DNA of 51,299 nucleotides from a virus. Taxonomy: Duplodnaviria > Heunggongvirae > Uroviricota > Caudoviricetes. Position numbers: made by a program. The stretch lies in the IMG/VR virus record IMGVR_UViG_641522650_000003; one strand, written 5' to 3'. Position 1 is the first letter of the stretch; each line of letters begins with the position of its first letter. This document shows, in pieces, positions 1 through 3,000 of the stretch.

Positions 1-3000
1 ATGGAACAGAAAGCATTATCTGCAGAACCCCGCAGATCATTTTCAAATGAGTTTAAACTTCAAATGGTTAAACTGGCTTCACAACCAGGAGCCTCTGTTG
101 CCCGTATTGCCCGGGAACACGATATCAATGATAACCTGCTGTTCAAATGGCTCAGGCTCTGGCAGAACGAAGGGCGCATATCGCGGCGTCTTCCGGTAAC
201 AACCTCTTCTGACACTGGCGTTGAATTATTACCTGTGGAGATAACGCCGGATGAGCCGAAAGAACCGGTGGCTGCTCTTACTCCGTCTTTATCTACTCAG
301 ACTACAGTTAGTGCCAGCTCCTGCAAGGTGGAGTTCCGTCACGGTAACATGACGCTGGAAAATCCTTCACCAGAGCTGCTCACAGTGTTGATCCGTGAAC
401 TGACCGGGAGGGGACGATGATCTCACACCCGTCAGGCACCCGCATCTGGCTCGTTGCTGGGATAACCGATATGCGTAAGTCTTTCAACGGGCTGGGTGAA
501 CAGGTACAGCATGTGCTGAATGATAATCCCTTCTCCGGTCACCTGTTCATCTTCCGTGGCCGACGGGGTGACATGATTAAAATCCTGTGGGCTGATGCTG
601 ATGGTCTGTGCCTGTTCACCAGACGCCTGGAGGAAGGCCAGTTTATCTGGCCTGCTGTGCGTGACGGCAAGGTATCCATTACCCGCTCGCAACTGGCAAT
701 GCTCCTCGATAAGCTGGACTGGCGTCAGCCAAAAACATCCCGCCTTAACGCACTGACAATGTTGTAAAAATGTCATGGCCGGATTATAAAAACGGCCATG
801 AATCAAAAATACCTCATTCGCATTGCAGAACTGGAATGCCAGCTCCGTCAGAAAGACCAGCAACTGAGTCTGGTTGAAGAGACGGAGGCCTTCCTGCGCT
901 CTGCACTGGCCCGCGCCGAAGAAAAGATCGAAGAAGATGAACGGGAAATAGAACATCTGCGGGCTCAGATAGAAAAACTGCGCCGGATGCTGTTCGGTAC
1001 CCGTTCTGAAAAACTGCGTCGTGAAGTTGAACAGGCTGAGGCCCTGCTGAAACAACGCGAACAGGACAGTGATCGTTACAGTGGGCGGGAAGACGATCCG
1101 CAGGTTCCCCGCCAGTTGCGACAGTCTCGTCATCGTCGCCCGTTACCGGAGCATCTGCCCCGCGAAATAAATCGCCTGGAGCCAGAAGAAAGCTGTTGCC
1201 CGGAGTGTGGCGGTGAGCTGGATTATCTGGGGGAAGTCAGCGCAGAACAACTGGAACTGGTGAGCAGCGCTCTGAAAGTGATCCGCACAGAACGGGTAAA
1301 AAAAGCCTGTACAAAATGTGACTGCATCGTTGAAGCACCGGCACCATCCCGTCCGATAGAGCGTGGTATCGCGGGCCCGGGGTTACTTGCCCGCATGTTA
1401 ACGGGAAAATACTGCGAACACCTGCCACTGTATCGTCAGAGTGAAATTTTTGCCCGTCAGGGTGTCGAACTGAGCCGTGCATTACTCTCCAACTGGGTTG
1501 ACGCGTGCTGCCAGTTAATGACGCCGCTGAATGATGCTCTGTACCGTTATGTGATGAACAGCCGCAAAGTTCACACTGATGACACACCAGTAAAAGTGCT
1601 GGCACCGGGCAGGAAGAAGGCGAAAACAGGATATATCTGGACGTATGTCCGGGATGACAGGAATGCCGGTTCGCCAGAGCCTCCGGCGGTCTGGTTCGCC
1701 TACTCACCGGACCATCAGGGTAAACATCCGGAGCAGCACCTTAGTCCCTTCCGGGGTATCCTGCAGGCAGATGCGTTTAATGGTTACGATCGGCTGTTCA
1801 GTGCCGAACGAGAAGGCGGCGCGTTGACGGAAGCAGGATGCTGGGCTCATGCGCGGCGCAAAGTCCACGATGTATATATCAGTACCAAAAGCGCGACAGC
1901 GGAAGAAGCCCTGAAACTAATCGGTGAGCTGTACGCCATCGAGCACGAAATACGCGGGTTGCCGGTGTCTGAACGCCTGGCGGTCAGGCAAATGCAGAGT
2001 AAACCGCTACTGACTTCCCTGTATAAGCTGATGCAGGAGAAAGAACACACGTTATCGAAAAAATGCCGTCTGAGAGATGCGTTCCGGTATATCAGGAAGC
2101 ACTGGGTTGCGTTGTGCAACTTCAGTGATGATGGTCTGGCTGAGGCGGATAATAATGCCGCGGAAAGAGCGCTTCGTGCAGTCTGTCTCGGAAAGAAAAA
2201 CTTTATGTTCTTCGGCAGCGATCACGGTGGAGAGCGTGGTGCGCTACTGTACGGGCTGATCGGCACCTGCCGACTGAACGGTATCGATCCGGAAGCGTAT
2301 CTGCGCTATATCCTGAGCGTACTGCCGGAATGGCCTTCCAACCGTGTTGACGAACTCCTGCCATGGAACGTAGCACTCACCAATAAATAAGCGTCAATAC
2401 GGTGCTCCGTTGACGCTGATATGACTTTCCGTGTCAAACCGGAATCTCTAATTTTGACGATTTTCTTTTTAGGTTTAATTCCCTGAGGGCGACGTAGCAG
2501 TAAATCCGACGGTGAATCACGCTGATATTCGCGGGTTGGATACCGCATTACAGAGGTCCGTCATATGAGCCTGCCACTTTCTTACGTCGCGAATCAGCTT
2601 TGTTCCGCCGTCGCCAAGCGCTAACGTGGGTTACTCTTGTACCGGGCTACGTCGCCTTCAGGGAACTGGTTATTCTCATTTTTTATTTGTGACATTGTGG
2701 TTGTTGTGCGACAGACATTGCTATTCGGCCCATATCCCAGATAAAACCCGCCAGCTCACGTGCAACAGCAACAATTGTAATATTGACATTCTTTCCTTTG
2801 GCCTGAAGTTTTCGATACCTCTTACAAAGCCTGAGTTGAGCATCCCATGCTCTGTCAATGACGGGGCGGGGTAAATTTTCCTGCCTTTTTTGTATTGCCG
2901 GACTGATGCGTGCCGGATGACGGTAACTCCACGCTGCCTCGACCAATAGCTTTCTGGCATAGCTGTTTCCGGCTTTGGTAATGCTGCCCTGATGTCTGCT

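Follow-up and report, generated by a model that had tools for sequence, protein, structure and literature searches.

An inverted repeat downstream of an ISSso6-like transposase gene as the probable closing stem of an IS1111-group bridge RNA (seekRNA) with a target loop matching IS66-family ends

The window analysed here, which is the whole stretch of 51,299 nucleotides from the virus record IMGVR_UViG_641522650_000003 of IMG/VR, contains an ISSso6-like insertion sequence (IS) of the IS1111 group, and this element is lodged in the end of another insertion sequence, the IS66-family element ISEc23. Its intact transposase gene encodes a protein of 375 amino acids which carries both Pfam domains of the IS110 family, DEDD_Tnp_IS110 (PF01548, E value 1.3e-11) and Transposase_20 (PF02371, E value 8.2e-24). 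The closest proteins of solved structure, the IS621 transposase (E value 1.8e-5 over ~90 amino acids) and the ISCro4 transposase, are both distant. The Escherichia coli copies are labelled 'IS110-like element ISSso6 family transposase' in RefSeq, and some related copies are already named 'IS110 family RNA-guided transposase' there. A preliminary description of the window had noted an imperfect inverted repeat of 22 bp (2477-2498 and 2646-2667), enclosing 147 bp directly 3' of the transposase stop codon, and had suggested that this flank might encode a guide RNA. The stop codon was indeed located at 2683-2685 on the minus strand, and the repeat begins 15 nt past it. We conclude with high confidence that the repeat forms the closing stem, P1, of the bridge RNA (seekRNA) gene of the ISSso6-like element. 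The features on which the following text draws are:

2476-2668, minus strand: putative bridge RNA (seekRNA) gene, a unit of ~190 nt closed by helix P1; from conservation bounds, consensus structure and covariation
2646-2668, minus strand: 5' arm of P1, the right-hand repeat arm of the preliminary description; helix 1, with 22 pairs, 6 of them compensatory, and 97.8% of cells paired
2476-2498, minus strand: 3' arm of P1, the left-hand repeat arm; from repeat search, consensus structure and covariation
2615-2625, minus strand: 5' side of the putative target-binding loop, GUUAGCG-CU-UG; its pairing partner is the top strand, in transposase orientation, of the core and the right target flank
2578-2588, minus strand: 3' side of the putative target-binding loop, GAC-GUA-AG-AAA; identical to the left flank plus core, so that it pairs with the bottom strand
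2589-2614, minus strand: P5/P6 hairpin capping the target-binding loop; all three P6 pairs are compensatory
2531-2546, minus strand: P7 hairpin with an invariant GCGG/CCGC stem; from the consensus structure
2507-2519, minus strand: P8 hairpin; from the consensus structure, with two U-G pairs that fit the minus strand only
2520-2530, minus strand: multiloop segment GA-AUAUC-AG-C-G, identical to the right-end terminus plus core; candidate guide for the donor bottom strand
2497-2506, minus strand: edge of multiloop and P1, GAUU-UACUG-C; tentative second donor guide, nearly invariant in relatives
2683-3810, minus strand: DEDD transposase (bridge recombinase) gene, RefSeq ISSso6 family transposase
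2418-3937, minus strand: ISSso6-like IS1111-group insertion sequence, consisting of the body 2418-3935 plus one CT core (~1520 bp in total)
2416-2417 and, as second copy, 3936-3937, unstranded: core dinucleotide CT (AG in transposase orientation), which flanks all copies on both sides
2420-2433, unstranded: right-end arm of the subterminal inverted repeat, 14 nt, 100% complementary to 3918-3931 and conserved in relatives
3918-3931, unstranded: left-end arm of the subterminal inverted repeat, partner of 2420-2433
2432-2437, minus strand: TTGACA, a candidate -35 box that would be completed only in the circular form, as judged from the joined-end sequence
1-2417, plus strand: ISEc23 (IS66 family), cut by the window start; tnpA 1-420, tnpB 417-767 and tnpC 798-2390, with Pfam IS66 domains
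3938-3940, plus strand: TAC, the outermost 3 bp of the right terminal repeat of ISEc23, which the insertion has cut off from the rest (compared with the intact end in locus L009)
3941-4520, plus strand: presumably what the ISEc23 insertion has left of rcnA, its 3' part (open reading frame 3981-4520)

A repeat search recovered the inverted repeat within 2 nt of the coordinates given before, as arms of 20 nt (2479-2498 and 2646-2665) that are 95% complementary (one mismatch) with 147 nt between them; at the RNA level, where G-U pairs are included, the stem extends to 2646-2668 and 2476-2498. When the 265-nt non-coding stretch was shuffled 300 times, the longest inverted repeat with at most one mismatch was 13 nt, compared with the 20 nt observed. 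Folding of the non-coding region gave a minimum free energy z-score of -4.9, and none of 200 shuffles folded as well. In a scan of one genome per species, 80 loci with related transposases (70-81% amino acid identity) were found, nearly all of them in Burkholderiaceae. The DNA 3' of these transposase genes was 72-82% identical to the window at the nucleotide level, starting at 2667 and ending at 2474-2477 in many loci, i.e., the conserved stretch was exactly the unit bracketed by the repeat.

An alignment of 63 distinct sequences, namely the window and 62 further copies (61 of them from the Burkholderiaceae relatives), yielded a consensus structure of 48 pairs. In this structure P1 encloses a multiloop with the two hairpins P7 and P8 and a long arm, which is made up of P2, P3 and P4, an internal loop, and P5 and P6; the domain closed by P2 comprises 88 nt (2558-2645). 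As many as 98.3% of the structure cells were paired, against 32-42% when the partners were slid by 1-3 columns. Compensatory changes were observed in 11 pairs, and the observed covariation was reached by none of 500 shuffles; the P5 pair 71:96, for instance, is G-C in E. coli, where most relatives have A-U. The region downstream of the transposase gene thus has the conserved structure on the transposase strand that is expected of a bridge RNA or seekRNA.

Sequence variation in the alignment falls into two patches, one on either side of the internal loop between P4 and P5, and both sides follow the DNA into which the respective element is inserted. Time and again, the 5' side turns out to be the reverse complement of the core together with the DNA that adjoins the element on its right: the flank AG-TCCATT is accompanied by the loop AAUGGACU in L043, AG-CAGACC by GGUCUGCU in L081, and AA-CAGGA by UCCUGUU in L055. 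The 3' side has the same sequence as the left flank plus core, as in L014, where GAACA-AG is found in both. In window coordinates the guides proper are GUUAGCG-CU (2625-2617) and GUA-AG (2585-2581). For 43 unique loci, the paired fractions at right-flank positions +1 to +5 were 0.91, 0.95, 0.84, 0.79 and 0.67, whereas 0.65, 0.41, 0.45, 0.38 and 0.40 were obtained when RNAs and flanks were shuffled; in total, 212 cells were paired, while 1000 shuffles averaged 129 and did not exceed 153. For 33 unique loci, identity to left-flank positions -1 to -3 was 0.85, 0.88 and 0.73 against 0.54, 0.37 and 0.42 after shuffling, with a total of 104 against 60 (maximum of 82 in 1000 shuffles). The loop therefore carries two guides which address opposite strands, share the core and follow the target in their variation, as has been described for bridge RNAs, and neither side was equalled in 1000 shuffles. 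The complementarity between guide loop and target flanks that the preliminary description had proposed to look for is thus borne out. Beside the target guides no handshake signal was found: on inspection, the position after the GUA-AG guide gave no consistent match to position 1 of the left end (G, T or A).

The boundaries of the element were defined by comparison of genomic copies. Of 5,426 complete E. coli genomes searched, 41 contained 2418-3935 (1518 bp) at 97-100% identity, with as many as 16 occurrences in one genome. Sixteen of these copies were read, and they occupy at least 14 distinct sites, including tktB, a primase gene, the region upstream of nhaA, sopA, IS66 ends and others. All 16 share 2418-3935 and diverge outside these bounds, the same 1518 bp occur in many contexts at 99-100% identity, and in 11 of the 16 the non-coding right end does not differ from that of the window in a single base. 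The repeat is therefore part of the ISSso6-like element, with which it travels, and the question of ownership that the preliminary description had referred to such a comparison is settled in favour of the IS110-type element rather than ISEc23 or host DNA. The junctions in all copies read ...(A/G)CG-CT[element]CT-TAC..., and which of the two CT copies is counted as the element's own is arbitrary. The tktB sequence without the element was deduced from the flanks and the reading frame to be AACG-CT-TACGGG; therefore, the element consists of 2418-3935 plus one CT, and there is no further duplication. Site-specific insertion without duplication beyond the core is a mark of the IS1111 group, and so are the subterminal inverted repeats (7-17 bp in the group), here set 2 and 4 bp in from the element ends, and the combination of a long non-coding right end (265 nt, 2418-2682) with a short left one (125 nt, 3811-3935). 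Neither a second copy of the element nor a second copy of the RNA gene was found within the window.

Some copies deviate from this pattern. In L005 and L097, which represent one ISEc23-end site in two genomes, the core is CC on the right-end side (left in the window) and CT on the left-end side, perhaps because the target was a variant one, or because a mismatch became fixed once the strands had been exchanged. Three E. coli copies located beside a gene for a CaiF/GrlA-family regulator (L006, L007 and L099) are older and frameshifted; they share one left flank, CACATTCA-CT, without a guide match, and have 5-6 substitutions in the RNA gene, one of them at the core-pairing position 2617. They look like decaying copies. 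In L083 (1303-1671), the RNA gene resumes past the right end plus AG, just after an internal ATATCAG, so that the last ~115 bp of the element are tandemly doubled; either recombination at the guide-coding pseudo-end or an assembly artefact on this contig of 1.7 kb would account for it.

As several of the other E. coli copies are frameshifted or truncated, it was considered whether the RNA gene is genuine while the copy in the window is an inactive relic. This is unlikely: the transposase reading frame in the window is intact, its non-coding end is shared unchanged with the 11 copies mentioned above, and the presence of up to 16 near-identical copies in one genome suggests recent activity.

Two further explanations accept the repeat and deny it a guide function. 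According to the first, the transposase mRNA would end in it as an intrinsic terminator or be stabilised by it as a 3' hairpin, and the very stable stem and its position 15 nt past the stop codon speak for this. However, no U-run follows the stem, the terminator scan of the minus strand was empty there and after the RNA, and the 147 nt inside the stem match it in conservation, with covarying helices of their own and with loop positions that track the flanks, which makes this explanation very improbable. According to the second, the repeat acts as DNA, either as a transposase-binding site or as a cruciform, and would be a second inverted-repeat pair. IS1111 elements do use subterminal inverted repeats, and in a single sequence both strands fold equally well. 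Nevertheless, the true subterminal repeats lie elsewhere (2420-2433 and 3918-3931), both arms of the present repeat are at one end of the element, and 267 G-U cells of the alignment, including the two U-G pairs of P8 that each occur in 60 of the 63 sequences, would correspond to A-C mismatches if the opposite strand were read or a DNA cruciform formed. A role as DNA is hence given very little credence, and the G-U cells place the RNA on the transposase strand.

The multiloop offers two plausible segments for recognition of the donor, i.e., the joined ends of the element, as judged from their sequence. AUAUC-AG (2528-2522) matches the right-end terminus plus core, CATATC-AG, and UACUG (2502-2498) is complementary to positions 2-6 of the left end (CAGTA). 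The element ends are nearly invariant and show no covariation with these candidate donor guides. Another segment, CAUAUGAC (2567-2560), resembles the left end (CAGTATGAC) but was not accepted as a donor guide: the left ends of the relatives stay TATGAC, and yet this patch is variable among them. The nucleotide that follows AUAUC-AG, C at position 2521 (column 167 of alignment A1), agrees with the right target flank at its first base in 82% of 40 unique loci (46% after shuffling), and none of 1000 shuffles gave a value as high. Positions 2-4 after AUAUC-AG were at the shuffle level, so that only the first one tracks the target. In its sequence behaviour, position 2521 looks like the handshake guide of the IS621 donor loop, here in an IS1111-type RNA, and the handshake signal beside the donor guide is confined to this one position.

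Several points weigh against the bridge RNA reading and were set against the evidence above. On the donor side, where the preliminary description had also called for guide complementarity, the matches to both ends stand, but what speaks for them is complementarity and conservation only. For the few variants of the ends, namely a change of left-end G4 to C in the L072/L036 group and a right-end ATGTC in L078, the RNA shows no compensating change. For UACUG in particular, no compensatory support was found, and its core-pairing part is imperfect, with UA where CU would be expected. There is also one A-C mismatch between the window site and the target guide. A search of 2300-4000 with Rfam 15 gave no match at an E value of 10 or below, so that the covariance-model check proposed earlier found nothing in Rfam; we take this result as the absence of a matching model and not as evidence against the RNA, and in place of such a match stand the covariation-backed structure and the guide-flank covariation in the 61 relatives. 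No sigma-70-like promoter was found upstream of the RNA in the promoter scan of the minus strand.

Since no promoter-like site precedes the RNA gene, an independent promoter is unsupported and processing from the transposase transcript was assumed. For ISEc11, it has been shown that a promoter arises at the junction and that the RNA is processed out of a longer transcript (PMC11187229), and by analogy the bridge RNA is most likely made from the transposase transcript. A junction promoter might exist in the circular form as well: the predicted circle junction of the joined ends is GTCATATC-AG-GCAGTATGAC, in which TTGACA, kept in almost all relatives, is separated by 17 nt from CAGTAT (3934-3929).

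The neighbour at the insertion site had been described as the end of an IS66-family element which the IS110-type element abuts. The family assignment holds, and RefSeq names ISEc23 in identical copies, but the contact is closer than abutment. The ISEc23 right terminal repeat runs to ...CCGTTGACG-CT at 2417, and an intact ISEc23 copy (L009) ends with ...CCGTTGACGCT-TAC; the element therefore interrupts the right terminal repeat 3 bp short of its tip. The idea that the inverted repeat is part of the ISEc23 terminus or of host DNA, for which nothing but the proximity to ISEc23 speaks, can be dismissed, as ISEc23 sequence ends at 2417, the repeat moves with the element into unrelated sites and is present in the Burkholderiaceae relatives, and the comparison of copies has already refuted it.

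The preferred site, on the window plus strand, is 5'-(C)GTTAGCG-CT-TAC-3'. The perfect site of the guide, CGTTAGCG-CT-TAC on the plus strand, is exactly the one occupied by the E. coli copy upstream of nhaA. Between the guide and the window site, CCGTTGACG-CT-TAC, 9 of 10 positions are paired, one of them as G-U; for the variant CCGTTAACG-CT-TAC (L095 and L096) it is 10 of 10, again including a single G-U pair. When the window was searched for other cognate sites (CGTTAGCGCTTAC, at most 2 mismatches), the sole match was the guide-coding DNA itself. IS66-family ends account for 8 of the 14 distinct E. coli sites: seven are tips of right repeats with different outer flanks, and one is a left repeat, GTAAGCGTAAACTG (L092), which was confirmed on an intact ISEc23 copy with an 8-bp duplication. 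The targeting of IS ends, which had been raised as a possibility from knowledge of other IS1111-type elements, is borne out by these sites and by the match of the guide to the IS66-family terminal repeat. The splitting of the terminal repeat would probably immobilise the IS66 element.

A different site was observed in several Burkholderiaceae relatives. The elements L047, L088, L056 and L018 (also those with flanks of the L033, L044 and L067 type) are inserted inside the transposase gene of another IS110-family element, and rejoining of the flanks restores an open reading frame with the Pfam domain Transposase_20 (E values 3e-25 and 3e-17). The insertion point corresponds to the codons of a conserved G-I-S-K-R/Q-G motif, and the target loops match these codons.

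Beyond the split-off TAC lies the open reading frame that we take to be rcnA, a His-rich Ni/Co efflux gene, as judged from the K-12 protein sequence; it is without its 5' part because ISEc23 inserted in it, and the left end of ISEc23 falls outside the window. Two further open reading frames (5133-5408 and 5453-5830) read like IS1 InsA and InsB; 5133-5830 would accordingly be a stretch rich in insertion sequences.

Taken together, the following course of events is proposed. An RNA of ~190 nt would be made from minus-strand sequence 3' of the transposase gene and would fold so that P1 closes the multiloop and the P2-P3-P4/P5-P6 arm presents the target-binding loop. The multiloop segments AUAUC-AG and UACUG would hold the donor, and the nucleotide after AUAUC-AG would match the target in a handshake-like manner. 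The DEDD recombinase with its bound RNA would then recombine the circular element into a site at the CT core, and in the window the site used would be the tip of the ISEc23 right terminal repeat. Transcription and processing of the ISSso6 RNA, its binding by the protein and catalysis by the recombinase are inferred steps in this scheme.

It has been reported that ISSso6 belongs to the IS1111 group and has a bridge RNA predicted in its right end (Supplementary Table 5 of Durrant et al. 2024, PMC11208160, a study that applied the published IS110/IS1111 models), which together with the covarying structure and the flank-tracking loops of the relatives upholds the guide-RNA interpretation of the 3' flank. 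ISSso6 is contained in the sequence sets of both 2024 papers (PMC11187229 and PMC11208160), and in PMC11187229 it appears only in sequence and identity tables, with no description of its RNA, target or assay. Among the papers listed as mentioning ISSso6, the topic is, by titles and abstracts, genomics or IS mapping and not its RNA or target. The guide-RNA system of ISSso6 and its right-end location are thus already published and the novelty of the present finding is low; what is added is the anatomy, the assignment of guides to targets, the exact element boundaries and the preference for IS66 ends.

For annotation, 2476-2668 can be entered as the bridge RNA (seekRNA) gene of an ISSso6-like element, with the ISEc23 copy interrupted in its right terminal repeat. 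One more RNA-guided insertion sequence with a guide set to the end of another IS would thereby be documented, and the spread of IS66 elements in IS-rich E. coli and Shigella genomes may be limited in this way. The chances are about even that the ISSso6-type clade keeps guide RNAs aimed at other mobile elements, i.e., at IS66-family tips in E. coli and at the IS110-family G-I-S-K-R/Q-G codons in several Burkholderiaceae relatives. If this is true, it would amount to RNA-programmed competition between insertion sequences, and nature would have supplied, ready for use, more than 15 target loops reprogrammed on the same scaffold. The aligned family, in which a single scaffold combines a multiloop donor site and one handshake position with many natural target loops, could aid the engineering of IS1111-type recombinases. 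No new principle is involved, and the result is useful for annotation and unsurprising to a specialist.

Among known systems, the IS1111 seekRNAs of ISEc11, ISKpn4, ISPa11 and ISPst6 (Siddiquee et al. 2024, PMC11187229) likewise lie in non-coding DNA downstream of a DEDD transposase gene, with the top-strand match 5' of the bottom-strand match. The ISSso6-like element shares the subterminal inverted repeats and the guide order of the ISEc11 type, its P2-closed domain of 88 nt is sized like the 'peak' seekRNAs of 82-96 nt, and its right-end TTGACA could complete a junction promoter as in ISEc11. It differs in its target, the tip of an IS66-family repeat, and its RNA is a prediction from sequence. 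Donor-binding nucleotides located in the multiloop have been reported for many IS1111 bridge RNAs (PMC11208160). The bridge RNA of IS621 (PMC11208160; Hiraizumi et al. 2024, PMC11208158) also has an internal loop with two guides for opposite strands and a 2-nt core in both, separate donor-matching segments, a handshake-like position beside the donor guide and a size of ~190 nt, and its core is CT too when the ISSso6 core is read on the other strand. In contrast to IS621, the ISSso6 RNA is located in the right end and not the left, the guide order in the target loop is reversed relative to the transposase orientation, the donor nucleotides are in the multiloop and not in a second internal loop, and long subterminal repeats (14 bp) are present; the proteins are only distantly related, as noted above. 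IS4321 and IS5075, also of the IS1111 group, reportedly target the terminal repeats of the Tn21 family. The ISSso6-like element resembles them, and also ISEc21 with its site in IS3 transposase codons, as an RNA-guided insertion sequence that prefers a conserved sequence of another mobile element, and as in IS4321 and IS5075 its insertion splits the end of that other element. The victim is different, however, being the IS66-family terminal repeat (GTAAGCG...), which is entered 3 bp from its tip; insertions occur in right (7 sites) as well as left repeats (1 site).

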